DNA of 29,806 nt, from assembly GCA_019116965.1 (NCBI GenBank), contig DXAT01000041.1, positions 1-29,806 on the forward strand, written 5' to 3'. This document shows positions 2,715 to 23,038 of the stretch, piece by piece. The first letter of the stretch is position 1; the number at the start of each line of letters is the position of its first letter. Position numbers and translations under genes: made by a program. The notes beneath the pieces were generated by a model that was not told the origin of the DNA, ran no database searches, and saw nothing but the letters and a program-made list of their open reading frames with translations. This DNA is from Candidatus Coprenecus pullistercoris. Its GTDB lineage: Bacteria; Bacteroidota; Bacteroidia; Bacteroidales; UBA932.

Positions 2715-4538
2715 TTAAAGTTGCTTTGCCTTTGTTATGTCGAATGATTCCGCACACAACCTCATCTCATTGTTGTATTTGATGCTGATCTGGTAGATTA
2801 TGGACGGATCCTTTTTCTTTTTCCCCTTCTTTATGATATTGCACAATACTGTCCGGTTGTCGGTATCCACATCGACAATCTCATATCCGATGATATCGCA
2901 GAACGGTTTGAGCCGGTCTGCAAAATCGGCTTGCCAATAAGATACTGTAGATTCGGTATAGAAGAAATCTTCGCACGAACCATTGTCTGTTGTGCTGTAA
3001 GCAATCTTTGATGCTTTGCTGGCATCTACCATGAATTCAAAGGGAGCGCGTAATGAATAGACGGTAATTTCCTTTGATATATTTTTCAATGTCGTGTTGT
3101 AGTCATTGATAGAATTCGTCTTGATGATAACTCTTTGCGAAATGTCAGGACTATAAGATAAAAGGCAGTAGTTGTCATTAAGTTCCATGAGCTGTAAGTC
3201 CTTGGAATCGCGCAGTGCAGAGGAAATAGAGCGCAGGATTTCCGAATCGCTTAAGTTCATTCCTAATTTGGTGGCTGTGGCTTTGCCCGAGTTTATTGAC
3301 TGCTTTATGTATGATCCGGCATCTACCTGATCGGAGCCGAAAATGGCTTGGCTCAATGTAACGGCCTGTGAGGCAATGGCTGCATTGATGCAGGAGTCTA
3401 CCGCATTCATCTGTTCCGAAGTGAGATATGCCTTGTGTTCATAGTTGGGAAGCTTTATTGACGGATTCTGTAGATAGTTTTTGAAACCATCCCAGTTCCT
3501 GATACTTATGTACGCCTGGTCTTCATCTGTATTGATGCACCAGTAAATATCGCCCTCTTTGCTGATTAGCGGATCAGAGTATCTATCGTCCAGTGTGAAC
3601 TTTTTGACGGTTTCAACCAGATATGCGGCTCCCTCATCGCTGATGTATGCTCTTTCAGTAAGATATTCATATTTTGGATTGTTCCTTTTGCTCAGGTTGT
3701 ACCCTTGCAGGCTTTCGAAATCGAAACCGTCCTTGAGGGACAATATAGCCATCCTGGCGTAGTTCCCGATGGTCAGACTGTCTTGTCTTATTGTATATCC
3801 GAGATTCAGCAGCTGCTCCTTGTTTATTTCCCCGGCAGCATATTTTCTTGACATCTCGGTGACGGCCGGTTTTGTAGAGGATTTTCTGGTCGTCTTGCTT
3901 ATCAGGACTCCGTCAATAAATTCGTATTTGTCGTTACCTATTATCCATGTTCCGGTAGGGATTCCTTCCGGGTTAAGGCTTCCCTTCACGGAAGTGGTCA
4001 TGCCCTCCCTGCCATATTTGTTCGGGCCGATGTATTCGTATGCGCCGGTCAATATTCCGTTGTCATAGTGAGCATTCAGCAGGACGGCTCCCCAAATGTC
4101 GTAATCTTCTAAGGAAATATTGTTTTTGACTTTGAAATCGCCATGTGGTATTCCTCCCTTTATGAAGTTTCCCGAAAAATTACATTGCATATTTACTGGA
4201 GTGTTGTTTAGACTTCCGGAGACTTTGCATGATGATGACGCCGCTCCATAGAGCCCGCCATTGGAAAATACCGCATCCAGTTTATATCTTACATCAAGAT
4301 TGCCCCAAAGTGTAAGGCGATTGAATTCATAAGATTCTTGTGCATTGATATTCAGGCTTCCGTCTTTGATGTTTGAACCGTTTTCTCCAATGATGTAATG
4401 ATAATTCGCTTTACCAGTAATAAGTCCGAGTGATGTGGCTTTGGTGTAAGTGACTGTGTTTTGTTTGCGTTGGGCAAAGGATGTCCCCAAGCACATCAGG
4501 CATGCAGTGCCGAGCAATAGGATTTTCTTCATTTTCAT
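2715..4538 (-). CDS. Secreted hypothetical protein (607 aa) with Gly-rich, MORN-like short repeats.
   Basis: N-terminal signal peptide MKMKKILLLGTACLMCLGTSFAQ. Long uninterrupted ORF. 20-bp spacing to the downstream lipoprotein gene suggests an operon. Confidence 0.75.
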   Translation of the reverse strand: MKMKKILLLGTACLMCLGTSFAQRKQNTVTYTKATSLGLITGKANYHYIIGENGSNIKDGSLNINAQESYEFNRLTLWGNLDVRYKLDAVFSNGGLYGAASSSCKVSGSLNNTPVNMQCNFSGNFIKGGIPHGDFKVKNNISLEDYDIWGAVLLNAHYDNGILTGAYEYIGPNKYGREGMTTSVKGSLNPEGIPTGTWIIGNDKYEFIDGVLISKTTRKSSTKPAVTEMSRKYAAGEINKEQLLNLGYTIRQDSLTIGNYARMAILSLKDGFDFESLQGYNLSKRNNPKYEYLTERAYISDEGAAYLVETVKKFTLDDRYSDPLISKEGDIYWCINTDEDQAYISIRNWDGFKNYLQNPSIKLPNYEHKAYLTSEQMNAVDSCINAAIASQAVTLSQAIFGSDQVDAGSYIKQSINSGKATATKLGMNLSDSEILRSISSALRDSKDLQLMELNDNYCLLSYSPDISQRVIIKTNSINDYNTTLKNISKEITVYSLRAPFEFMVDASKASKIAYSTTDNGSCEDFFYTESTVSYWQADFADRLKPFCDIIGYEIVDVDTDNRTVLCNIIKKGKKKKDPSIIYQISIKYNNEMRLCAESFDITKAKQL

Positions 4539-4559: not shown

Positions 4560-4622
4560 TTGGTATATGCAAAGTTGCAAAAAGCGTCGTTTGGTTCAAT
4601 GGCCCTTTTTGGCCCTAATTCC
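4560..4622 (-). repeat. Truncated 3' part (~60 bp) of the X/20-mer repeat family. The 20-mer GGCCCTTTTTGGCCCTAATT (4601-4620) encodes the last 7 codons of the PD-(D/E)xK gene. A cAacTTTG -7-like box sits ahead of the 2715..4538 gene.
   Basis: About 55 bp align with 5680-5735 (tatgcaaaGttgcAaa...ggccctttttggccctaattcc). Confidence 0.7.
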
Positions 4623-5345
4623 TGCTTGGATGGTGGTAAGCAGGTATCTGAATCTGTCACCGTTCTTTGTAAGTGCGGTGATGGCAGTGTCGTCCCAGTG
4701 GCACAGGTAGCTGCCATGCAGCACGAAGTCCGGATGAGATCCGATGATTTTTTCAGAGATCTTTCCCCATTTCAGTAATCCGGGACCAATCCGATTCCCT
4801 TCATGTGTGGAGAATGCGCGATAGCTTACATCTGTACTGGGACCGTTCCAGTAGATTCTGTTGTTGGTGACGAGCAGGGCAACACCGTCGGTCATATTTG
4901 GGTAGCATTGATTCAAGGCCTCGATGCGGCGTATGTCTTTCCAGTAGTTGTACATAATGATATCTCCTGCGCCTTGGTTCTTAATGATCCGGCAACCTGT
5001 TTTCAAATCTTCTCCGAAACGGGAAGGTTGATTGATAACAGGGCATGTGGCATACTTAAATTCTACGGCGGCAAACCGGCCGTCTTTTTCCACCACCACA
5101 TCGATGGACAGGTCATTGTCCCATGGAAAATCTAAGCTCTCTTTTCCTACTTTCAGATGGCGGACGCATAATTCTTCTTTCGGCACGGCATACTCCATGT
5201 CCACTCTGTCGTAATGCTTCTTTTCTTTGAGCCACATGGTTATCCGCACCTGCAGGTCTCTTTCATTGAAGATGAGTTCCTTGTTGCTTTTCAGAAAATC
5301 CTCCAGGTCGCAACGCAGCAATGTCAACAGGTTGCTGTTTTTCAT
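4596..5345 (-). CDS. Stand-alone PD-(D/E)xK (restriction-endonuclease-fold) nuclease family protein.
   Basis: Motif SIDVVVEKDGRFAAVEFKY (D ... E-x-K with 13-residue spacing). Single-gene cassette bounded by the 20-mer repeats. Lower GC than the core genes. Confidence 0.65.
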   Translation of the reverse strand: MKNSNLLTLLRCDLEDFLKSNKELIFNERDLQVRITMWLKEKKHYDRVDMEYAVPKEELCVRHLKVGKESLDFPWDNDLSIDVVVEKDGRFAAVEFKYATCPVINQPSRFGEDLKTGCRIIKNQGAGDIIMYNYWKDIRRIEALNQCYPNMTDGVALLVTNNRIYWNGPSTDVSYRAFSTHEGNRIGPGLLKWGKISEKIIGSHPDFVLHGSYLCHWDDTAITALTKNGDRFRYLLTTIQAGIRAKKGH

Positions 5346-5398
5346 GTCGTTTAAAATTAAATGTGCAGGCGGACTCCTATCTCTGCCAATTTATTAAA

Positions 5399-5735
5399 AA
5401 GAAAGTGTGGAGCCGGTCCGTCTGTCTTTGAAGAGGTTCTGACAAAACCCGAATGTAGGCAGGCTGAACAATCCCCACACTCGTATCGATTGTGAGAATA
5501 CACAAGTCAATACAAGTGATGGTGCCGTCGTTGTCCTTACATTCGTTGAAACTGTCAGATTTCTTCAAAAGGACAGTGCGAAAACACTTTCACCAATATG
5601 TCCGCCACATGTTTTGTCACATGGCACTACAAATATACTAACTTTTTCCATAAAGCAGCACCTTGCAGGGATTGTTTCGTATGCAAATTTGCGAATATTT
5701 ATACAGATATGGCGGCCCTTTTTGGCCCTAATTCC
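5399..5735 (-). repeat. Full copy 2 of the ~330-bp noncoding element X plus the 20-mer (5714-5733). Candidate structured 5' leader or recombination module directly upstream of the PD-(D/E)xK gene.
   Basis: About 85-90% identity to 10966-11291 over ~330 bp. The reading frames of the small ORFs inside are not conserved between copies. Conserved hairpin ACTGTC-N15-GACAGT. Long-range helix AACAAUCCCUGCA/UGUGGGGAUUGUU on the minus strand. Confidence 0.8.
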
Positions 5736-6419
5736 GATTCAGGCAAGTATGGTGCAGTTCAAACATCAGCAGTCTGCAGGCATTTTGATATACCGTCGCC
5801 GGTCTTATGGATTATCGGTGTCTTTGGGGAGAGAAAAGGTATAAAACTTTTGGTACACCTCACTATCTGTAATCCGGTAATCGCCATAATGTGCACATAT
5901 TCAGCTGTTTGCTGCCGCAGCCTCATAACAGATACGGCGCTTTTTGCCTGGAATTCGCCTTAATACGGCCTTATCTGTTATGCAGATTTTGACATATGAT
6001 GCTAATATATAGTCATTTACATAAAGAATACAATAACAGATGCTAAGGTCTATTAGGTACGCGCCACGAAAATCCATCTGTCTACACCCCTGAAATCGGA
6101 TGCAACGGTATAATATGTAAGTGCGCGCACCTGATTTTGACAGATGTAATGGATAATCAGTTGGTTGTATTTGATGTAATATGCGCGTACTTTCCGTAAA
6201 TACACCGGCATAAGATGTCGTATGTGATGGATGTGGCAGGGAGGCAGGCTACAAGTCTTTTTGACCGCTTGCAGCCTGGCGCTCCACTCTCTGCCGAGGA
6301 CATGCTCTCTTGTATATGCTCCTTAGTGTGAGTAAGTTCCTATTTGCGACACAGGATAGGTCCCGCTGATATGGCCATGGACTTGGGCCCAGAGTCTTGT
6401 AAAGTGACAGCTGCGGAAT

Positions 6420-7067
6420 TCAGCGGAAAATGCCGAATTTAACAGAAGCGGTAACGCTGTCTCGGAAAGTCTGTCCACCTTTGTAGCGTTGATAATAAAA
6501 GAGGTGATATAAGGTACTGTTCCCTCAATTACGAAATCAGTGATTTCGCAATTAAATGGGTATAATTTTACTCTCCCCGTCAAGCATCTGAATTGGACAC
6601 ATAACCTGATACTTTTACAGCAGGTCAAAGACATACGGGCAAGGTATTGGCGCATGGTGCAATACATTGTGCCCCATTGGAATACCGCTATTTGCAGGAA
6701 GCCATTAAACTTGATGATTACGGCAAACACGGGGCTTTGGCAAACAATTTTACCGAAACCCTCCCTGCACCGGTATCTGGTGATTGAGCTGAAAGACACA
6801 GAGTTCATGCCGGAATATATCGGCAAGCTCAACTTCTACTGTTCCGCCGTGGATGATATACTCTGCCGTGAAGGTGACAATCGCACTATCGGCCTTTTGC
6901 TCTGCAAGACCAAGGACCGCATCAAAGCTGAATATGCCTTGCGCGATATTCAGAAGCCGATAGGGATTTCCGATTATGAATTGGGATAGGCTTTGCCGGA
7001 AGATTTTCGGGGGAGCCTGCCTACGATTGAGGAAATCGAAAACGAATTAGAGGCAAAACAATCCTGA
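6420..7067 (+). pseudogene. Degraded yhcG-like (DUF1016, PD-(D/E)xK nuclease) pseudogene. N-terminal region eroded, with an internal deletion and an in-frame TAG at 6987-6989.
   Basis: The 6540-6989 ORF carries LNWTHNLILL (N-domain motif) fused to YLVIELKDTEFMPEYIGKLNFYCSAVDD...TIGLLLCKTKDRIKAEYALRDIQKPIGISDYEL. The family C-terminus ALPEDFRGSLPTIEEIENELEAKQS continues in frame after the TAG, to 7067. Confidence 0.6.
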
Positions 7068-7353
7068 TATTCAGCAAAAATGTAGGAGAAAGTGGGTCAG
7101 TGGCGGTAGTCGCTGAGACCGAGATTCTTTCCCTTTTGGCTGCCATACCGAGCATGAGCATAATGTCCGGCTTCATGTACTGCAGTAAACCGGATACAAT
7201 TTCCGTTACTTTCCTGAAACTTACCGGTAACCGTACTGCCTTGACCCAATCTTTGAAACTGTCGCAGGATGCTGCCTCTGCGGCGACATCCCACGACAGA
7301 TTCCTGTCCCGGCCTCCGAACGGCTCAGATCCTGTAATCAATACCGATATCAT
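7021..7353 (-). pseudogene. pcp: Truncated pyroglutamyl-peptidase I (pcp) fragment. N-terminal ~85 residues are recognisable, then divergence or truncation.
   Basis: MISVLITGSEPFGGRDRNLSWD...LPVSF...KPDIMLMLGMAAKRERISV matches the Pcp N-terminus (VLLTGFDPFGG...NPSWE...PDIIICVGQAGGR..ITPERVAIN). The remaining ~130 aa are absent. The fragment overlaps the yhcG remnant convergently. Confidence 0.55.
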
Positions 7354-7448: not shown

Positions 7449-7793
7449 CTATGTATGCTTGGTCGTAAATCGTATAATTAAAATCATTATTAAAAGTAAT
7501 AATGCATTGACAATGATGTACAATGGTACAGAAAACTCAAAAAAAGCAAAGGTGAAATTAAGGACAAGCAGAATGAATAGAAAGATTCCACCAATAGTGT
7601 GCATGACAATACCGGCTCGCTCTGTATTGGCTTTTAAGGCAATAGTGAACAGGCCGGATACGACAAGTGCTATAAAAGTAGTAATCGTGGCAACCCATTT
7701 AAGGTCCTCAATTTTGACGATGCTGTATTCCCCCCAAGACAGTAATGCTGAGATGGCGACGGTGACTATTGTGTAGAAAATGTCTATTCTCAT
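7449..7793 (-). CDS. Small integral membrane protein (3 predicted TM helices), hypothetical.
   Basis: 114-aa ORF with three long hydrophobic stretches. Its start overlaps the stop of the upstream gene (7793/7795). Confidence 0.55.
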   Translation of the reverse strand: MRIDIFYTIVTVAISALLSWGEYSIVKIEDLKWVATITTFIALVVSGLFTIALKANTERAGIVMHTIGGIFLFILLVLNFTFAFFEFSVPLYIIVNALLLLIMILIIRFTTKHT

Positions 7794-7794
7794 C

Positions 7795-8124
7795 TCAATG
7801 TTTATTCAAGATTATTAATTTCATAATTTCAGGTATGAGTTTCGCCTGTGTCCAGCCGCTCATGCCTGGTTTCCACATTAAGGTGTCTTCTTTTATTTTA
7901 TAAGATGATACCAGTGTGTTTACTTCAGGCTCAGTAATGGGGCCAATCTGAACATTGTCCACGATAGCATAATATTGTGATTCTGTTTTTATGACAGGTG
8001 CTCCTGAACCAGGGGTTTGCATATTATCTATAACATGATTCATGGTCGCAATCATCTGCTGCGCGACGGCCATACTCATGCCGAACTCTAAAAGTCTGTC
8101 TAATGAATTAAACGAGTTGTCCAT
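7795..8124 (-). CDS. GYF_2 (DUF4339) domain protein. Paralog of the C-terminal domain of the SPFH protein.
   Basis: YYAIVDNVQIGPITEPEVNTLVSSYKIKEDTLMWKPGMSGWTQAKLIPEI parallels LAINGQQSGPFSIPQLQQLAQQGKINAQTYVWKPGMSEWIMAGQVDEL in the upstream gene. Confidence 0.65.
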   Translation of the reverse strand: MDNSFNSLDRLLEFGMSMAVAQQMIATMNHVIDNMQTPGSGAPVIKTESQYYAIVDNVQIGPITEPEVNTLVSSYKIKEDTLMWKPGMSGWTQAKLIPEIMKLIILNKH

Positions 8125-8144
8125 ATTGATTCAATTATGTTTGA

Positions 8145-9500
8145 TTATTGAGGCATTGGGGGCATCGGTGGTGGGGGAGGTGTGTTGGGTATAAATATGT
8201 TTTTAAGTTCATCGACCTGACCGGCCATGATCCATTCGCTCATGCCCGGCTTCCAAACATAAGTCTGGGCATTAATCTTTCCTTGTTGCGCAAGTTGCTG
8301 CAGTTGCGGTATGGAGAATGGACCGCTTTGTTGGCCATTGATTGCGAGCATATATGTCGGGATAGGTGGCGGGGGCGGGGTGTTCATGCCGTTTTGCATT
8401 GTCTGACCCATATTATTCATCATCCCTGCCATCTGACTGCCCATGGCTCCTCCCATCATCATGCCGGTCATCATTCCTGCGGCGTTCATGCCTCCTCCGT
8501 CTCCCATATAGCCCATGGCTCCGAGGTTTTCAGCTCCTGCCCGTAGGACACTAGCCTGCTGATCCAGTGCATGGGCCCCTATGAAATTGGTCTCAGTCTG
8601 CAGGCGTTGAGCACGCTGTGCTTCCTGTCGGTTGATACGCAAGGTCTCCTGCGTATTCTCTGCGTTTATAGCCTGTGTATCTGCCATATTCTTTATGCTG
8701 ACTTTGGTCTGTGCCTGGATTGTCTGCGCCTGTTGCATGGCGGTTACATGGCGGAGTTCCATATATCCATCGCTTTCTTTGTCTGGATCTATGCGGTTTA
8801 TATCCACTCGCTTGACATTTACGCCAAAATCTTCAGACAATTCCTTTGACAGCCGTTCTTGGAGAAGGTCTGATATCTCAGTTATTTTCCTTTCTATTTG
8901 CAGGACGGGGATGCCGTTGTCCTGAGGAGCGTTGCTGACAAATGACTTGACATATTTAGTGACGGCATCTTTTATTTGCTTGTTAAAATCTTCCAATGTG
9001 AAATTTATCATCCTGTTCAGCTTTATGAAAGCTTTATAGTCAGATATATTGAAAGTGATACTGCCTTGTACAGCCATCGGTACTGCGAAATCAAGAAACC
9101 GGGGATCAAATACATCAAAGAATGGAATTGTGAACTCGATTTGAATGTTTCGTGCAAGATTTATAAAATATATTTCCGCTTGGAAAGGAGACTCACCTCC
9201 ATAGGCTAAGCCTATAATGTTGGCCAAAACAGGAAAGTTTGCCGTTTCGATGGTCTCGTCATAAGGTCCTTCAATATAGTCTTGGAGTGTTCCGTCTTTT
9301 TGTTTGTACACAAAAACTGCCACTTCTCCGTCTTTTACCCTGAGGCTACTGCCAAAGCGGATGGAATTTTCCCTTGTGGTAGAATTTACATCTTGTCCTT
9401 CCGGTCTCCATTTCCAGACAAGATATTCTTTCTCATCACAGCGGATGACATTCATCATCCCCCCTGATTTTCCCTTTTTGCCAATTCCAAATAGTCCCAT
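8145..9500 (-). CDS. SPFH/Band-7 (Band_7_1, YdjI-like) domain protein with a Gly/Met-rich low-complexity linker, polyproline tracts and a C-terminal GYF_2 domain.
   Basis: N-terminus MGLFGIGKK...VIRCDEKEYLVWKW is typical of YdjI-type SPFH proteins. Coiled-coil Q-rich segment. GAMGYMGDGGGMNAAGMMTGMMMGGAMGSQMAGMMNNMG linker. TPPPPPIPT and NTPPPPPMPPMPQ tracts. Confidence 0.8.
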   Translation of the reverse strand: MGLFGIGKKGKSGGMMNVIRCDEKEYLVWKWRPEGQDVNSTTRENSIRFGSSLRVKDGEVAVFVYKQKDGTLQDYIEGPYDETIETANFPVLANIIGLAYGGESPFQAEIYFINLARNIQIEFTIPFFDVFDPRFLDFAVPMAVQGSITFNISDYKAFIKLNRMINFTLEDFNKQIKDAVTKYVKSFVSNAPQDNGIPVLQIERKITEISDLLQERLSKELSEDFGVNVKRVDINRIDPDKESDGYMELRHVTAMQQAQTIQAQTKVSIKNMADTQAINAENTQETLRINRQEAQRAQRLQTETNFIGAHALDQQASVLRAGAENLGAMGYMGDGGGMNAAGMMTGMMMGGAMGSQMAGMMNNMGQTMQNGMNTPPPPPIPTYMLAINGQQSGPFSIPQLQQLAQQGKINAQTYVWKPGMSEWIMAGQVDELKNIFIPNTPPPPPMPPMPQ

Positions 9501-9505
9501 GTTGT

Positions 9506-10342
9506 TTATATGCTCGGTTGGTTAAATAATGATATTAAAGCCTCTATGCCGCTTGATATTAGACATATCAGTAGGATTATGATTGTGACTTTCCATGCCC
9601 AGTGCAGGCGCTTGAACCATGCAAGAAAGCCAACCCCAATAACTTTTCGTTTAAATCTTGTGTAGTCATCAATAAACGGTTTGAAAATATCATCATTTTT
9701 GAAGCTGAGTTCTGCTTTGTTTATGCATTCCTGATATTTTTTCCAATATGCCATTCTGCATGGATCTGAGGAGTCTGTAATATGCGGCTTGGCGGATGTT
9801 AGAAAATCAAGCAAATCAGCCTTGGCATTTGGTATGGGAAAAGTCTCTATGATATTTATTCTTTTTTTTATATCCTCTACTTCTGATAATTTGTTTGATA
9901 ATTTTTCATAAGACATAGAGGCGTCAATGTTTAGGAACTCGTATCCGCAAGCTGTGCAAACAGGACTGAATGCTTTTACAAGGGCATTGCACTGAGGACA
10001 CCGGCGCACATCTCCGAATTTTTCAGATTTTGGAGCCGATAAATTAGACGGGGCGCTTTTTTTATTATTAATCTGGTTGTATTCGCTTAAGCGTGCATCA
10101 AGCACCATTTCAAATTCATCAAGGTCAATACCTTTTGCCTGGGCTTTTTTGAATAGTATTTGTTTTTCTTTTTCAGTTAAAGTACCGTCTATTATTGCGA
10201 GGTCAATGAGTTTTTCCATTTCTGCATCATAGAGTCCGGTCCGTGTTTGCGAGGATTGTGTTTTTCTCATTGTCATTTGTTGTGACGGAACTGAATTGAC
10301 CTCATCGTACAGTTCTTTAATTATATTTTTTAATGTAGACAT
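9506..10342 (-). CDS. Zinc-ribbon protein with an N-terminal TerB-like/co-chaperone-like helical domain and a C-terminal TM anchor.
   Basis: CPQCNALVKAFSPVCTACGYEF (C-x2-C ... C-x2-C). N-terminal LIDLAIIDGTLTEKEKQILFKKAQAKGIDLDEF. C-terminal hydrophobic VTIIILLICLISSGIEALISLF. Sits 5 bp upstream of the SPFH gene. Confidence 0.65.
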   Translation of the reverse strand: MSTLKNIIKELYDEVNSVPSQQMTMRKTQSSQTRTGLYDAEMEKLIDLAIIDGTLTEKEKQILFKKAQAKGIDLDEFEMVLDARLSEYNQINNKKSAPSNLSAPKSEKFGDVRRCPQCNALVKAFSPVCTACGYEFLNIDASMSYEKLSNKLSEVEDIKKRINIIETFPIPNAKADLLDFLTSAKPHITDSSDPCRMAYWKKYQECINKAELSFKNDDIFKPFIDDYTRFKRKVIGVGFLAWFKRLHWAWKVTIIILLICLISSGIEALISLFNQPSI

Positions 10343-10354
10343 AAGGATTATATT

Positions 10355-10915
10355 TTACAGCCAGGAAAATATTTGATCAAGTTGTCCCAATAGTTCAGAG
10401 TTGCCGGTCTTGTCCTTGATCATCTCACCCAAAAGTTGAAAATCAAGATATAGCTCTTTGCCGATACTCGGCAAAGACTGAGTTATATACTTGACATTTG
10501 ATGATGATGACAGGGCTTCTCTGGCAGTCATTGATTTGACAATATCTGTAATGTTTGTGAGTGATGTTGTTAGCTCAGCTAATTTCCCTGCAAGTTGAGT
10601 GACTTCTTTACCTAAGCCGTATAGTTCATCTATTGATGGCGAGGCACTTTTGTTTTCTGCATTATCTTCAAGATCAAAATAAGTGATATAGAAATTTTTG
10701 ATAATAGGACTGATTCTGATTGTTACATCAGCGATTTCTTTGCAGGTTTTTGCGGCATTGTCAATAATGTCAACCCCGCAGTCTTCTGGTAAGTCAAGAT
10801 TTTGCATTTTCTCAATTCGTTCTTCTGATTCTTCGCACCATTCTAATGACTGGGGGAAAGCCATTTGTTGGAAAGAGAGAATCATAACCAATGTTGCAAA
10901 AAGTGCTCTTTTCAT
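10355..10915 (-). CDS. Secreted hypothetical protein. First gene after element X copy 3.
   Basis: Signal peptide MKRALFATLVMILSFQQMAFPQS. 12 bp upstream of the zinc-ribbon gene. Confidence 0.6.
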   Translation of the reverse strand: MKRALFATLVMILSFQQMAFPQSLEWCEESEERIEKMQNLDLPEDCGVDIIDNAAKTCKEIADVTIRISPIIKNFYITYFDLEDNAENKSASPSIDELYGLGKEVTQLAGKLAELTTSLTNITDIVKSMTAREALSSSSNVKYITQSLPSIGKELYLDFQLLGEMIKDKTGNSELLGQLDQIFSWL

Positions 10916-10965
10916 TACTTTTAATTTTTAGGTCAGTCGGCTCCCAGGACTGACGGGCTTATAAT

Positions 10966-11291
10966 AAGAAAGTGTGGAGCCGGTCCGTCTGTCTTCCAAG
11001 AGGCTCTGACAAAGCCCGAACATAAACAGACTGAAACAATCCCCACACCTGTATCGCTTGTGATGAATACACAACCAATACGGGTGACGGTGCTGTCGTC
11101 GTCCTTACGTTCGTTGAAACTGTCAGATTTCTTGGAAAGGACAGTGCGAAAACACTTTCACCAATATGTCCGCCATGCGTTTCCGTGCATGACGCCACAA
11201 ATATACTAAATTTTCATGTAAACAGCACCCTGTGGGGATTGTTCCGCAGGCAAATATGGGAATATTATTGACAGCCTCCCCGGCCCTTTTC
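10966..11291 (-). repeat. Full copy 3 of the ~330-bp element X plus a 20-mer variant GGCCCTTTTCGGCCCTAATT (11272-11291). Lies between the hipT stop and the SPFH-module operon.
   Basis: Aligns with 5399-5735. Long-range 13-bp helix AACAATCCCCACA (11034-11046) / TGTGGGGATTGTT (about 11234-11246). cAtaTTTG -7-like box on the minus strand just inside the 20-mer. Confidence 0.8.
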
Positions 11292-11321
11292 GGCCCTAAT
11301 TTCGTCAAGCTTTGAGTTGTA

Positions 11322-12263
11322 CTATCCCAGCAGCTGCAGTCTGCCGGCAATTATTTTGATGAAGTTCTGCTGCATGTTCTCCGGAAGGAATGACAACCCT
11401 ATGAACATTTGCCATTTACTGAAGGCATTGTGGAATTTACTGAAGATATTCTCAATGATTTTCTCCTCCAGTCCGCAGGCCGACATCTCGGTGATGAAAT
11501 CAGCCTTTTTGATTTTACGTTTCTTGCCGTTGAGAGTCAATGCGAGTTCCTCGGTGTCTTCCGGCATAACCAACGCTGTGGACAGCATGTCGTATGCCGG
11601 TGTGAGAGTGTAGTTGCCGGCCAGCTTGCTGTAGAGGGAAAAGTTTTTCAGGTGCATATCGGCATTGCCTGTAATCCAGGAAAATACCACCTGCTCCCAG
11701 AAATTGACTAGATCAAGTTTGGGTACGGATGAGTATTTTCTTATGGTTTTCGCTATCTGGCCGTATGAGCCCCGGTATTTATGCTCTGTAAGACGTTCCG
11801 TAAGCTGGCACATGTCTTCCATTGCCAGTTTCCCTCCGTTGGCGGTGCGGTCGATGCGTCTGGTTATATAGCACAGTTCTCTGTCGGCGAAACGTATCAG
11901 GCTGTGCGGGACTACTTTCATTTTGGCCAGTTCAGCCAGATGCATGGTTAGGTCTTCCACTTCCGGAAGATTGCTGAAGCGGTCGGTCTGCGGCTTGAGA
12001 ATGTACCGGCCCCACAGTCCTACGATAGTGAAGCGCTCTTTTCCGCCCGGCCTGTCCTTGCAGATGTCCAGGGACAATTTGGCCTGAACTCCTGTCAAAG
12101 TGGTCTGGCTGCGGATTACCTGCTTCGCAAGGTCAGTGAGATTGTCCCGGGTGTACGGTAGCACCGGAGCCTCGGGAGCTCCGAATATTTTTTTCGCACA
12201 TTCCCTATGAAAATCCTTCTCATTCTCGTGCAGCTCCTTATAGCAGTAAAGACATTTGGCCAT
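11322..12263 (-). CDS. hipT: HipT-like kinase toxin (HipA C-terminal kinase core) of a tripartite HipBST system.
   Basis: 313 aa. HipA-family catalytic loop GNADMHLKNFSL. Lacks the HipA N-terminal subdomain, which is encoded separately upstream. Confidence 0.85.
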   Translation of the reverse strand: MAKCLYCYKELHENEKDFHRECAKKIFGAPEAPVLPYTRDNLTDLAKQVIRSQTTLTGVQAKLSLDICKDRPGGKERFTIVGLWGRYILKPQTDRFSNLPEVEDLTMHLAELAKMKVVPHSLIRFADRELCYITRRIDRTANGGKLAMEDMCQLTERLTEHKYRGSYGQIAKTIRKYSSVPKLDLVNFWEQVVFSWITGNADMHLKNFSLYSKLAGNYTLTPAYDMLSTALVMPEDTEELALTLNGKKRKIKKADFITEMSACGLEEKIIENIFSKFHNAFSKWQMFIGLSFLPENMQQNFIKIIAGRLQLLG

Positions 12264-12265
12264 GA

Positions 12266-12595
12266 TTATTCCTCCTTTTCTGTTATCGGTTCAACACCTA
12301 CAGCTCCTATGCAGTCCTTGCAGCAGGCCAGCAGCAGGGACATGCGGTCCCGTGCGTCAATTTTCCAATTCCTCTCAGCGATGTCAAGCAGCCAGCCTTC
12401 GGGAATCAGGCCGTCGAAAAAGGGAAACAGGACTTTGTCCCTATAGGGTCTGTCGGTCAAAGGCAGAGTAAGACTTATGGCCTCAGCCTTTTCTGATGTC
12501 AGAAATCCGCCGTCATACTGGAATGTGTAGCCGTTTTCATCTTCTGTAAGGATGCCGGCCCTCTCGCCGCGTAGATATACCGTCGCCTGTTTCAT
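12266..12595 (-). CDS. hipS: HipS-like protein (HipA N-terminal subdomain homolog). Antitoxin of HipBST-type systems.
   Basis: 109 aa, MKQATVYLRGERAGILTEDENGYTFQYD resembles the HipA N-terminus. 2-bp gap to hipT. 4-bp overlap with hipB. Confidence 0.75.
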   Translation of the reverse strand: MKQATVYLRGERAGILTEDENGYTFQYDGGFLTSEKAEAISLTLPLTDRPYRDKVLFPFFDGLIPEGWLLDIAERNWKIDARDRMSLLLACCKDCIGAVGVEPITEKEE

Positions 12596-12813
12596 AGATC
12601 ATCGGTGTTTTTGGAGAGAGGGACTGCGCCTACTTCGCTGCCGAATAGGTTGAGAATCAAGTTGACTTTGTCCAGTCGGAGAGTCTGTTTGCCCTGCTCC
12701 AGCTCCCGGACAAAGCGCAGGCCGACTCCGGATTTCTCCGACAGGTCTACCTGAGTCAGGCCGTATTGCTTGCGCATGGCCTTTACGTATCTGGATAAGG
12801 TTGTTTGCTGCAT
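12592..12813 (-). CDS. hipB: HipB-like XRE-family HTH transcriptional regulator.
   Basis: 73 aa, helix-turn-helix LTQVDLSEKSGVGLRFVRELEQGK. First gene of the hipB-hipS-hipT operon. Confidence 0.8.
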   Translation of the reverse strand: MQQTTLSRYVKAMRKQYGLTQVDLSEKSGVGLRFVRELEQGKQTLRLDKVNLILNLFGSEVGAVPLSKNTDDL

Positions 12814-12850: not shown

Positions 12851-13017
12851 CCAAAGATATCCCCGATAAGGTATAAAATACTTTAAATCTAATATGATTA
12901 TACCCGTTCAGGCGTATTGCCCCAAAAATACATCTTGCCCATAATGGTCTTGGAGATTGTCGAGCGGCGGGAAAAAGAGAAAAGCCCCTGGTGCCTTGTG
13001 GCGCCGGAGGCCTTTTG

Positions 13018-13090
13018 TGATCTGCTTGGGGCTCGAACCCAAGACCCCAACATTAAAAGTGTTGTGCTCTACCAACTGAGCTAGCAGATC
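13018..13090 (-). tRNA. tRNA-Lys (anticodon TTT)
   Basis: Reverse complement GATCTGC-TA-GCTC-AGTTGGTA-GAGC-A-CAACA-CTTTTAA-TGTTG-GGGTC-TTGGG-TTCGAGC-CCCAA-GCAGATC-A gives a perfect cloverleaf with anticodon UUU. CCA not encoded. Coordinates +/-1. Confidence 0.9.
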
Positions 13091-13136
13091 GGATTTGGAC
13101 GGCAAAAGTAAGTAAAAAGATTCAATGCGCAAAATA

Positions 13137-13170
13137 TTTGTGCGGTTAAGAGGTGGTTTTCCTATTTTTG
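13137..13170 (+). promoter_or_regulatory. Bacteroidetes-type promoter for the 13175 gene: -33 TTTG (13137-13140) and -7 TATTTTTG (13162-13169).
   Basis: Match to TTTG-N19-21-TAnnTTTG about 5 nt before the ATG. Confidence 0.4.
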
Positions 13171-13174
13171 CGGC

Positions 13175-14032
13175 ATGGAAGGATTTCAGTCGGAAGTACG
13201 GGATTTCGTACGGGAATGCACGGGCCGGGAGCCGCTGGTGCTTGGTGTGGCCGGGGCTGATGCTCCGGGTTTGTGCCTGACTGCGGACGGGAGGCTGGCA
13301 GTGGTGACGGTGCCATTGGAATTTTTCCGCCGTGGAGGTGCTGTAGGGGAACTGATAGCATTGGAGGAGGAACCGGTTGTGCGTCAGGCAGGAGACAGGG
13401 TCTTTCTGTATGAGGACCGATGGCGCAATGACGGTGCAGCCGTCAGGTCCATGCTGCGGACAAGAATGGGGCTGGGCTTCAGGGTGTTTGCCCGGAATTG
13501 CGAGGTGCTGGACCTGTCTCCGGAAACAGCCGCGGATTTTCTCAGGCGTAATCATATTTATGGTTCGGCAAGGGCCAGATACAGGCTCGGCTTGTTCCGC
13601 AGAAGGGCAACTGGTATGGCGGAGGCCGGAATGGATCAGACACCTGTGCTGGCGGCGGTGGCGACATTTTCATCCGGAATACGGAAGGAGGACGGTACGG
13701 TGTCCTATGAATGGGTGCGGTATGCCTCGGTCAGAGGGGTGAGGGTTACGGGCGGCATGGGGCGTCTGCTGGATGCTTTTGTGACAAGAGTCAGGGGAAA
13801 CGGTCCGGTGGATGTGATGACCTACGCGGATCTGGAGTGGTATGATGGCCGCTCGTACCGGCGGCTTGGTTTCGAGCCGTGCGGTGATCGGGCTCCGGTA
13901 TGGTTCATGTGCAGGGTAGGGAGCGGTGAGCGGCGGGTCTGTCATGGCAGTGGGGAGCAGACAGCGCCGGGGGAGGTGAGGATATGCAATCCCGGCAGCC
14001 GGAAGTATATTCTCCCGGTGCGGGATTATTGA
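13175..14032 (+). CDS. Hypothetical protein (GC-rich). Possible acyltransferase-like fold. Converges on clpC and overlaps it by 7 bp.
   Basis: 285-aa ORF with an upstream consensus promoter. No clear family. High GC means the ORF length alone is weak evidence. Confidence 0.5.
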   Translation: MEGFQSEVRDFVRECTGREPLVLGVAGADAPGLCLTADGRLAVVTVPLEFFRRGGAVGELIALEEEPVVRQAGDRVFLYEDRWRNDGAAVRSMLRTRMGLGFRVFARNCEVLDLSPETAADFLRRNHIYGSARARYRLGLFRRRATGMAEAGMDQTPVLAAVATFSSGIRKEDGTVSYEWVRYASVRGVRVTGGMGRLLDAFVTRVRGNGPVDVMTYADLEWYDGRSYRRLGFEPCGDRAPVWFMCRVGSGERRVCHGSGEQTAPGEVRICNPGSRKYILPVRDY

Positions 14033-22768: not shown

Positions 22769-23038
22769 TTATTCTGCCGTCTCTTCAGTTTTGGGCAGGG
22801 GTCTTTCGTTGCCCACTGCGACATTGATGGTACGCCCCATATATTCTGTCCCGTTAAGGGCCTCAATGGCTTTCATACCTTCTTCTTCGGACATCTCTAC
22901 GAAACCGTAGCCTCTCGACCTTCTGGTTTCCTTGTTGACGATGATTCTGGCAGAGGACACTTCTCCATAAGGAGTGAACAACGAAGCCAAATCCTCTTTT
23001 CTGACTCTGTAGTTCAAGTTAGATACAAAGATATTCAT
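22769..23038 (-). CDS. RNA-binding protein (RRM domain)
   Basis: RNP-2 IFVSNL and RNP-1 RGYGFVEM motifs. 89 aa. Confidence 0.85.
   Translation of the reverse strand: MNIFVSNLNYRVRKEDLASLFTPYGEVSSARIIVNKETRRSRGYGFVEMSEEEGMKAIEALNGTEYMGRTINVAVGNERPLPKTEETAE

Follow-up and report, generated by a model that had tools for sequence, protein, structure and literature searches.

A family of promoter and structured leader RNA modules in Bacteroidales, represented by two copies in Candidatus Coprenecus pullistercoris

Introduction

Gut Bacteroidales (Alistipes, Rikenellaceae, Muribaculaceae, Bacteroides and Phocaeicola) vary their surface proteins extensively, and the controls acting on these proteins include invertible promoters, NusG-like antiterminators, sigma/anti-sigma pairs and hybrid two-component systems. 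Here we examine a repeated element, called X below, in a 29,806-nucleotide stretch of the Candidatus Coprenecus pullistercoris genome (contig DXAT01000041.1 of GenBank assembly GCA_019116965.1), the whole of which is referred to as the window. An earlier note on this DNA had proposed that X is a structured, non-coding 5' leader RNA read from the minus strand. The best reading of our analysis is that each X is one of two paralogous copies belonging to a large Bacteroidales family of portable modules that combine a promoter with a structured 5' leader.

Among described systems, trp-type attenuators and riboswitch platforms contain segments that pair in mutually exclusive ways, one set giving a GC-rich hairpin followed by a U-tract upstream of an open reading frame (ORF) and the other sequestering both strands of that terminator. 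X has the potential for both sets. It differs from trp-type attenuators in having no conserved leader peptide, in the size of its putative antiterminator, a rod of about 230 nt with an additional 1:4 pairing, and in having a promoter built in. A further difference from attenuators is an upstream 'region 0', the 5' arm, which can block the terminator only in longer transcripts. Invariant unpaired loops within a covarying fold are reminiscent of riboswitches, but X matches no known aptamer in Rfam and precedes genes with no coherent function.

Two other kinds of leader are also comparable. In Bacteroides, the NusG-like protein UpxY acts on the 5' leaders of capsule loci, suppressing premature termination in the long 5' untranslated region (PMC11685472). 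X is likewise a Bacteroidales leader of surface-structure genes and, by analogy, may be controlled after initiation, but it has no upxY, upxZ or polysaccharide genes downstream, and instead of a sequence particular to one locus it is a structured RNA that is conserved. The processive antitermination RNAs, HK022 put and the EAR element of Bacillales, are cis-encoded structured leaders at the start of accessory or surface-polymer operons, as X is, whereas X has no sequence or structure match in Rfam and contains its own terminator-like alternative fold. The Bacteroidetes motifs in Rfam (Bacteroidales-1, Bacteroides-1 and -2 and Bacteroid-trp; Weinberg 2010, PMC2864571) come from the same taxon, and 6S RNA shares the rod shape, but X had no Rfam match.

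The X family and its association with downstream genes

When the window was searched with the family profile using nhmmer, exactly two copies of X were found, both on the minus strand. The core of each runs from an internal promoter to the end of the leader, at 5352-5637 for copy 1 (E 3.4e-51) and 10920-11205 for copy 2 (E 1.8e-51). They lie directly upstream of minus-strand ORFs at 4596-5345 and 10355-10915, respectively, as the earlier note had observed for both copies and for a shorter third instance (ORF 2715-4538) discussed below. Coordinates are those of the window, and features of X are on its minus strand.

The wider family was collected by scanning one genome per species with a strict pattern derived from the 3' part of X (CAGARCCTC, 14-26 nt, CTCCACACTTTC). 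At least 120 loci matched, nearly all from Bacteroidales, and the carriers among the matches listed include Alistipes, Rikenellaceae, Tidjanibacter, Rikenella, Muribaculaceae, Bacteroides and Phocaeicola. Cultured strains among them include Alistipes montrealensis kh20, Alistipes muris DSM 112343, Alistipes sp. i18-0019-D1 and Phocaeicola faecicola AGMB03916. One match (L037) was due to chance, and a few in metagenome-assembled genomes labelled Firmicutes are apparently binning errors. About 110 homologues from more than 100 species share the architecture of X, and as their median pairwise identity is 62% the family offers good depth for covariation analysis. Several assemblies contain 2-3 copies, and two copies were present in some of the 8-kb loci. 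In one locus (L102) a full copy is followed immediately, in the same orientation, by a second, degenerate one (52 bits), forming a tandem leader (5086-5311 and 5514-5714), while two others carry a pair on opposite strands within 8 kb (L015, 3683-3881 and 7291-7511; L064, 1849-2050 and 7281-7461).

A co-oriented ORF of at least 50 codons was found after 108/112 elements, and in 65 of these 108 its start lies 45-60 nt after CUCCACACUUUC. The upstream neighbours are mutually unrelated, ranging from housekeeping to mobile genes, and occur in both orientations (62 to 33). Among 95 upstream ORFs, neither a recombinase nor a regulator recurred. This heterogeneity upstream indicates that X belongs to its downstream gene and behaves as a portable expression module.

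X appears to be an undescribed Bacteroidales RNA family. Neither window copy matched any of the 4227 models of Rfam 15, even at E values up to 10; a scan of the whole window returned only tRNA, and 18 diverse family loci gave only tRNAs at the gathering score, so a known RNA family, 6S included, was rejected. Full-text literature searches with the invariant sequences and related terms found no description of the element. An origin from plasmids or phages was also rejected. No match was obtained in a plasmid search, and only 10 among 2.9 million viral contigs contained the pattern. A BLAST search of phage records gave two partial matches, in unverified 'Bacteriophage sp.' contigs from human faeces, which contain the same blocks with compensating differences and are ordinary family members.

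A long-range rod fold in the sense-strand RNA

Conservation of secondary structure was assessed on a 66-sequence MAFFT alignment that had not been fitted to any structure, with slid pairing partners and 500 shuffles as controls. A first covariance-style scan was swamped by one-sided R/Y variation, and mutual information with average product correction was used instead. In the plain MAFFT alignment the top-scoring pairs were the two halves of a single helix, B, which includes pairs of all four Watson-Crick types (e.g. AU:37, UA:33, GC:18, CG:16). Together with the GGAG helix described below, the long-range rod of which B is part was paired in 86% of cells, versus 37-46% with slid partners, and its covariation score was 0.344 versus 0.07-0.10, a value that none of the 500 shuffles reached. 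A 200-position covariance model of the rod alone (R1) was then used to realign 103 members, of which 94.1% of cells were paired, with 35/49 pairs changed on both sides and 894 cells showing changes on both sides versus 247 in shuffles. As the R1 alignment is fitted to the structure it leans towards it, and the mutual information and the unfitted MAFFT results are the independent evidence. In the window, R1 matched 5398-5594 (142 bits) and 10965-11162 (139 bits).

The rod consists of nested long-range helices, H2, D, E, B-outer, B-inner, F and C, and extends over about 230 nt. H2 joins GAAAGUGU to ACACUUUC and is 99% paired. Its 5' strand (5584-5591; 11152-11159 in copy 2) is part of a block, GGACAUAUUGGUGAAAGUGUUUUCGC (5578-5603; 11146-11171), that falls inside a 40-nt identity between the copies and whose columns are near-invariant in the family. 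The strands of D are short and variable, E pairs UUUAUC with GAUAAA, B-inner pairs UCUGNNA with UNNCAGA, and B-outer and F have variable, covarying strands. On the R1 alignment F is 95% paired, with 7/7 pairs changed on both sides. Helix C (CACUUGUAU with AUACAGGUG in the family) is 88% paired in the MAFFT alignment and 92% in the R1 alignment.

In copy 1 the 5' strands of E (5572-5576), B-outer (UUUGAAGA, 5562-5569) and B-inner (UCUGACA, 5553-5559) occupy 5553-5576, corresponding to 11121-11144 in copy 2, where the B-outer strands are UUCCAAGA and UCUUGGAA. The 5' strand of F (GAAUGUA, 5538-5544) and a segment called region 2 below (AAGGACAACGA, 5528-5538) make up 5528-5544 (11096-11112), and helix C is formed by CACUUGUAU and AUACGAGUG around a variable hairpin at 5478-5518 (11046-11086). 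The 3' strands of F (5451-5457), B-inner (5438-5444), B-outer (5427-5434) and E (5422-5426) lie within 5422-5457 (10989-11024), a stretch that doubles as the loop and inner stem of the terminator-like hairpin. A 5' hairpin, H1, has the sequence CAUGU-GACAAA-ACAUG in copy 1 (5608-5623) and CAUGC...GCAUG in copy 2 (11174-11191), a compensatory change; its sequence varies across the family, yet most members have the hairpin. Compensatory differences between the two copies are also present in F and in B-outer, the latter with a double change from UG/CA to CC/GG.

Close to the 3' end of the rod is a hub, GGCUCCACACUUUCUUUUU (5396-5414; 10963-10981), that is invariant in every aligned member, an invariance partly forced by the search pattern, which contains CTCCACACTTTC. 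It is made up of overlapping parts, namely GGCUCC (5409-5414), CUCCACAC (5405-5412, the 3' strand of the terminator-like hairpin), ACACUUUC (5401-5408, the 3' strand of H2) and the U-tract UUUCUUUUU (5396-5404). The first of these corresponds to NNCUCC, just 5' of ACACUUUC in the family, which pairs with GGAGNN about 25-30 nt downstream (92% paired in the unfitted alignment). Two pairs of this helix covary (GC:32/AU:19 and AU:24/GC:18), and it forms a pseudoknot relative to H2 that spans past the U-tract. In copy 1 the partner of GGCUCC is GGAGUC (5372-5377), in the loop of a 3' hairpin at 5365-5386, and in copy 2 it is GGAGCC (10939-10944) in a hairpin at 10932-10954. The stem of the GGAG-loop hairpin is weakly supported (median run of 5 pairs versus 4 in shuffles).

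Pairs of the G·U type greatly exceed those of the A·C type in the well-aligned core helices (161 versus 29 cells), which identifies the RNA as that of the gene-sense strand, the minus strand in the window. The arms discussed below covary as well. X is therefore, with little doubt, a conserved structured leader RNA on the sense strand, and in this the original proposal is borne out. The dominant fold, the long-range rod with the GGAG-loop helix, was absent from that proposal, which had featured a local hairpin, ACTGTC-N15-GACAGT. That hairpin is present in both copies and is paired in 77% of the family, versus 27-45% with slid partners, a moderate level of support. Since it uses nucleotides of helices E and B-inner it competes with the rod and would be at best a folding intermediate.

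Both window copies are predicted to fold with exceptional stability. The minimum free energy is -97.6 kcal/mol for copy 1 (z -5.66) and -103.7 kcal/mol for copy 2 (z -5.63), and in neither case was any of 200 shuffles as good. A coding function was rejected, as the earlier note had argued, because all six frames of both copies are interrupted by stops, the copies lose frame at indels and a Pfam search of the ORFs internal to both copies gave no match.

X could also be a rod-shaped small RNA in its own right, about 235 nt long and equipped with both a promoter and a terminator. Such an RNA would act in trans (e.g. by protein titration), and the downstream genes would be expressed by read-through only. 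This would account for the consensus promoter and terminator-like end, for a very stable rod with invariant internal loops and for the several copies per genome. However, one strand of the covarying NNCUCC-GGAGNN helix lies beyond the U-tract, which means that the read-through RNA is itself under selection. The near-constant presence of a co-oriented ORF, with its sharp 45-60 nt peak, and the lack of a match to any Rfam small RNA or 6S model also speak against a small RNA, which we regard as improbable.

A terminator-like alternative fold

The 3' part of X can adopt a second set of pairings. Region 1 (UCGCUUUUAUCCUUG) pairs with region 2 (CAAGGAUAACGA), and region 3 (GUGUGGRG-UA-UUGUUUAUUUG, or GUGUGGRG-UAUUGUUUAUUUG) pairs with region 4 (CAGAUAAACGA-NN-CUCCACAC), with the UUUCUUUUU U-tract directly 3' of the region 3:4 hairpin. 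In the unfitted alignment this set was paired in 87.9% of cells, versus 42-53% with slid partners. The helix between GUGUGGRG and CUCCACAC, H5, is paired in 99.6% of cells, its sole variation being G·U alternating with A-U, and the earlier suggestion that the 3' arm has a second, switch-like partner therefore holds. The main eight-pair run of H5b is 92.7% paired, and H3, between regions 1 and 2, has a 7-pair core that is 80% paired and two short extensions at 73% each. Where the family consensus reads GUUUAUUU, AGAUAAAC and UUAUC, copy 2 has GUCUGUUU, AGACAGAC and CUGUC; in this copy all three partners of the shared 3' strand have changed together.

When isolated, the 3' part folded as the terminator hairpin in 109/109 members (ViennaRNA), with a median of -27.7 kcal/mol; the values for the window copies were -27.1 kcal/mol (z -1.8) and -34.8 kcal/mol (z -4.1). 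At least 7 T are found in the 10 nt after CUCCACAC in 108/113 loci. The 5' strand of this hairpin is the 3' arm, GUGUGGGGAUUGUU (5467-5480; 11035-11048), whose possible partners are the 5' arm, CUCCACAC and, through its GUG, helix C. The rod sequesters the strands of the terminator, ACAC and AGAUAAACGA being part of H2, D and E, and the GUG of the 5' strand part of helix C. The hallmarks of an attenuator are thus found in X, namely a GC-rich hairpin and U-tract between a promoter and an ORF, and a mutually exclusive fold that sequesters them.

The best explanation of these features is transcription attenuation with a logic like that of the trp attenuator, operating over the four segments. The state with 1:2 and 3:4 paired would be an intrinsic terminator and the gene would be OFF, while the state with 2:3 and 1:4 paired would be the rod. 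In the rod both terminator strands are sequestered and the gene would be ON, a state that the downstream GGAG helix would lock in the read-through mRNA. The default state is probably ON. Because equilibrium folding favours the rod, we infer that a trans factor, either a protein or a small ligand binding the invariant loops, would tip the nascent RNA to termination or release it. Invariant loops between the covarying helices (GACAUAUU, GAAAUCUG, CAGARCCUC and UGGGGUAUUG, with GA-AA-UCUG opposite CAGA-RCC-UC) are the obvious candidates for effector-binding sites. We put the probability that X acts by transcription attenuation of this kind, with termination as predicted from the fold, at roughly 0.55.

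Several findings weigh against attenuation. The covariation of the terminator hairpin is modest (76 cells versus 44 in shuffles), because its strands are highly conserved, and it is mostly at the level of sequence that the hairpin has been maintained. It has a loop of about 35 nt, and a simple terminator scan did not flag it. At three nascent lengths, transcripts folded at equilibrium as the rod in 82-92/109 members and as the terminator stem in 2/109, so termination would need a kinetic trap or a further factor. The closing helix of the rod is likewise trailed by U's, and the U-tract consequently does not fix which state terminates. The 100 downstream proteins have no pathway in common that would suggest a ligand, and 37 of the 63 loci that carry the 5' arm have no recognisable upstream promoter box (see below).

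X could instead be a post-transcriptional leader. The stability of the mRNA, its processing (e.g. by RNase III on the long helices) or translation initiation of the ORF about 20 nt downstream would then depend on the rod together with the NNCUCC-GGAG helix and the 3' hairpin, with the terminator-like hairpin as a co-transcriptional intermediate or minor conformer. The rod is the predicted equilibrium structure at every transcript length tested and in the full leader, where it is about 12 kcal/mol more stable overall (ViennaRNA). Covariation is strongest in the rod and in the helix that spans the U-tract, and the spacing to the ATG is constant. What such a leader does not explain is the joint retention of the GUGUGGRG/CUCCACAC and GUUUAUUUG/AGAUAAAC pairings together with a T tract of at least 7/10. 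The distance of about 18-25 nt between the GGAG and the ATG is also too great for it to serve as a Shine-Dalgarno sequence, which Bacteroidetes rarely use. On balance this explanation is rather unlikely.

A second variant would make attenuation depend on a ribosome. A start codon (ATG, GTG or TTG) occupies the same position of the invariant block in 96/107 members (the GUG at 5592-5594 and 11160-11162 in the window) and opens a mini-ORF (RUG-AAA-GUG-U.., encoding MKVF/Y..). An A/U-rich stretch precedes the start and region 1 is inside the ORF, so that a ribosome on region 1 could select between the 1:2 and 2:3 pairings. However, 11/107 members have no start, neither the stop nor the register of the mini-ORF is conserved, and its length ranges between 3 and 89 codons. 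Conservation of the block extends to all three codon positions and the block pairs with ACACUUUC, as expected of an RNA rather than a coding constraint. Translation of the mini-ORF as the switch is thus very unlikely.

Returning to attenuation driven by a trans factor, a more specific form of it is that X represents a riboswitch-like class, sensing a ligand or a protein, within a cassette of promoter, sensor and terminator. Such a class would place dozens of unrelated, fast-evolving surface and accessory genes per Bacteroidales genome under one signal, with the 5' arm of transcripts from upstream promoters disabling the terminator. This is a tentative proposal. Relative to known terminator/antiterminator leaders, X has three unusual features, which are the built-in promoter, the very large rod as putative antiterminator with a helix across the U-tract, and an arm for a putative promoter-dependent bypass.

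Promoters and the upstream 5' arm

A TAnnTT[TA]G box (P2) is found 40-55 nt upstream of the invariant GAAAGUGU/GAUGAAAGUGUUU block in 110/113 loci, and TTG is found 15-26 nt upstream of the box in 74/109. In the window the P2 -7 box (TATATTTG in copy 1) is at 5630-5637 and 11198-11205, and a -33-like GGTGCTG is at 5656-5662 and 11223-11229. TAnnTTTG was read as a promoter from the -33/-7 promoter consensus of Bacteroides, and P2 is thus a predicted Bacteroides-type promoter inside X, downstream of the 5' arm. The earlier note had placed the start of the element at a cAnnTTTG box further upstream. This box (P1) does occur in all three instances, as CAAATTTG at 5684-5691, CATATTTG at 11251-11258 and CAACTTTG (cAacTTTG) at 4570-4577, but the best-conserved promoter is P2. 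Of the 63 loci with a 5' arm, 26 have an AnnTTTG box no more than 24 nt before it, versus 0 in a control interval; both window copies have the box. The P1 box and the 5' arm are an upstream add-on in a subset of loci.

The 5' arm is AACAAUCCCUGCA in copy 1 (5664-5676) and AACAAUCCCCACA in copy 2 (11231-11243). It pairs with the 3' arm, which is the 5' strand of the terminator hairpin. The 13-bp helix AACAAUCCCCACA/UGUGGGGAUUGUU is perfect in the copy at 10966-11291 and includes two G·U wobbles (CCCUGCA) in the copy at 5399-5735. The wobble-preserving changes described in the earlier note are therefore real, with the labels of the two copies swapped. In the family, where its consensus is ACAAUACCCCA, the arm immediately precedes the -33 element. 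It is found 33-50 nt before the P2 -7 box, and the 3' arm about 150 nt after that box. At this fixed position, 63/109 loci, or about 60%, have at least 8/12 Watson-Crick pairs between the 5' arm and UGGGGUAUUGUU. Covarying versions include CAAUACCCC/GGGGUAUUG, CAAGACCCC/GGGGUCUUG, CAAUGCCC/GGGCAUUG, CAACACCCC/GGGGUGUUG, CGAUGCC/GGCAUCG and CAAUCCCC/GGGGAUUG, and the cells that are not Watson-Crick comprise 56 G·U and 2 A·C. Over all loci, armless ones included, 79% of cells were paired versus 43-55% when slid, with a covariation of 0.388 versus 0.11-0.15, figures that carry a mild bias as the interval scored was the best of 18 positions. These patterns indicate that the arm helix is selected at the RNA level.

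Since the 5' arm is upstream of P2, its helix can form only in transcripts that start further upstream, at P1 or by read-in. As its target is the 5' strand of the terminator, we infer that the arm would be a built-in antiterminator, through which P1 or read-in transcripts bypass attenuation.

Arms that flank a promoter could also be explained at the DNA level, by an invertible promoter with the 13-bp inverted repeat on either side, a recombination site of the integron or rAID type, or a miniature inverted-repeat transposable element (MITE) that carries a promoter. Bacteroides invertons similarly have short inverted repeats flanking a TAnnTTTG promoter upstream of surface-protein genes, and the 5' and 3' arms flank P2. 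X is also repeated, in an accessory island next to tRNA-Lys, and the rAID-1 arrays of Bacteroidales, which are integron-like, likewise occupy a variable island and have repeated intergenic sequences ahead of small, diverse accessory genes that share one strand (bioRxiv 10.1101/471110). However, among 113 loci identified from their outside flank the promoter segment has the same orientation in 110, and three, rather than being inverted, are truncated or have no box. The arms tolerate G·U-type and not A·C-type mismatches, a distinction that a DNA crossover site would not make. There is no recombinase among the window ORFs, XerD-family enzymes included, or among the 95 upstream ORFs. An inverton was rejected on these grounds. 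A rAID-1 or integron repeat was rejected in view of the missing recombinase and the heterogeneous upstream genes, and X is found before just two transcription units and not before each ORF, is a promoter and structured RNA of about 290 nt and in some members is next to housekeeping genes. With regard to a MITE or Correia-like element, the divergence of the copies (76% identity over the aligned core and 79% over the element) argues against copy-paste spread, as do family members that are about 62% identical and differ by compensatory changes. The DNA-level explanations are very unlikely, with the inverton and the recombination site largely refuted, and nothing supports the role as an arm of a recombination module that the earlier note had raised.

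Genes downstream of family members

The first proteins downstream of X, 100 of which were compared with Pfam, matched 57 families. The most frequent were BspA-type LRR_5 (13), BACON (8), LRR_8 (6), DUF4988 (5), Lcl_C (4) and REase-ARP nucleases (3). Others were collagen-like, fimbrillin-like, Big_2, PD-(D/E)xK, zinc ribbon, FHA and CHAT, and many had no match. By a crude test, 65/108 downstream proteins have an N-terminus resembling a signal peptide. The genes that follow X thus mostly encode surface or secreted proteins, and the family is not specific to mobile or defence cassettes as had been suggested.

The two copies and the promoter-only stub in the window

The two window copies are direct repeats separated by about 5.57 kb. 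The repeat blocks are 5508-5646/11076-11214 (139 nt, 86% identity), 5395-5468/10962-11035 (74 nt, 86%) and 5467-5495/11035-11063 (90%). A global alignment of 5395-5740 with 10962-11308 gave 79% identity, slightly below the earlier estimate of 85-90%. This alignment contains 42 transitions, 27 transversions and 3 gaps, and two stretches in it, of 40 and 30 nt, show no difference. Each copy is no more than 72% identical to any other family member, so the two are mutually closest relatives and look like an old segmental duplication. Contigs of the same strain from several runs in Logan (L001-L009; SRR12763687-94) all break off within X, at the stretches of 40 and 30 nt. These ends were rejected as transcript ends, as they are k-mer repeat breaks at sequences identical between the copies.

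A 22-mer (GGAAUUAGGGCCAAAAAGGGCC at 5714-5735) is located upstream of P1. The 22-mer GGAATTAGGGCCAAAAAGGGCC, which contains a GGGCC-N5-GGGCC direct repeat, occurs three times in the window (also at 11282-11303 and 4601-4622) versus 0.00 expected, about 25 nt upstream of each cAnnTTTG box. Among all of the loci fetched it was present only in the same-strain Logan contigs. It was therefore rejected as a family feature and is a strain-specific companion of P1, outside the family core, at which an activator or repressor of the upstream promoter could bind.

The third instance of the 22-mer belongs to the sequence at 4560-4622 that the earlier note had described as a truncated copy of X. The 22-mer, a P1-like box (CAACUUUG, 4570-4577) and a degenerate 5' arm are indeed present at 4570-4622, but neither nhmmer nor R1 detected an X core there, making it a promoter-only stub. 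It is about 32 nt upstream of the ATG (4538) of the ORF for a 607-aa protein (2715-4538).

Both copies are in a variable island bounded by a Ser/Thr kinase gene (695-1975) and tRNA-Lys (13017-13090), past which are the core genes clpB, gyrA and acetate kinase/phosphotransacetylase. Copy 2 is preceded by a hipBA-like module (11322-12813, minus strand), an intact HipA_C/Couple_hipA/HTH_3 module that adjoins the tRNA gene. Copy 1 is preceded by a remnant of the same kind, 5787-5833 being 85% identical to 12574-12620 at the junction of the HTH and HipA-N segments. This remnant indicates that hipBA and X were duplicated together and that hipA was later deleted.

The 249-aa protein encoded downstream of copy 1 had been labelled a PD-(D/E)xK nuclease, but it has no recognisable domain in Pfam, NCBIfam or PADLOC searches. 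The operon after copy 2, called the SPFH-module operon in the earlier note, comprises six genes (7449-10915, minus strand, the first at 10355-10915), and its products include a 186-aa protein of unknown function, zinc-ribbon, SPFH/Band_7 plus GYF_2 and GYF_2 proteins, and a 114-aa protein of unknown function. No PADLOC match and no informative NCBIfam match were obtained for this operon, which may be an uncharacterised membrane-associated accessory system. A defence-system context was rejected for the window, as PADLOC and NCBIfam were negative for the downstream proteins.

Gene debris is found between the cassettes, including a broken ORF for a YhcG/DUF1016 PD-(D/E)xK nuclease (6540-6989, plus strand) and a 110-aa fragment (7021-7353, minus strand) that matches only positions 2-79 of the 204-position pyroglutamyl peptidase (Peptidase_C15) profile. 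A 215-aa mechanical ORF (12908-13555, minus strand) overlaps the tRNA-Lys gene and is almost certainly spurious, and the product of a 285-aa ORF (13175-14032, plus strand) had no family match. Among the core genes is one for a single-domain RRM_1 RNA-binding protein (22769-23038, minus strand), of the same protein class as RbpB of Bacteroides, a global RNA binder.

Implications for Bacteroidales gene regulation

X would add an RNA-based layer of control for BspA-type leucine-rich repeat proteins, BACON lipoproteins, nucleases and many uncharacterised proteins. A fold that is large, rich in covariation and predicted to be bistable, and that has no match in Rfam, makes X a good candidate for an orphan riboswitch or a protein-binding RNA. 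The module may also serve as a portable part for expression and regulation in the engineering of Bacteroidales. As a module of about 290 nt found at a fixed spacing from more than 100 unrelated genes in more than 100 species, X could define a regulon for proteins that are as yet uncharacterised.

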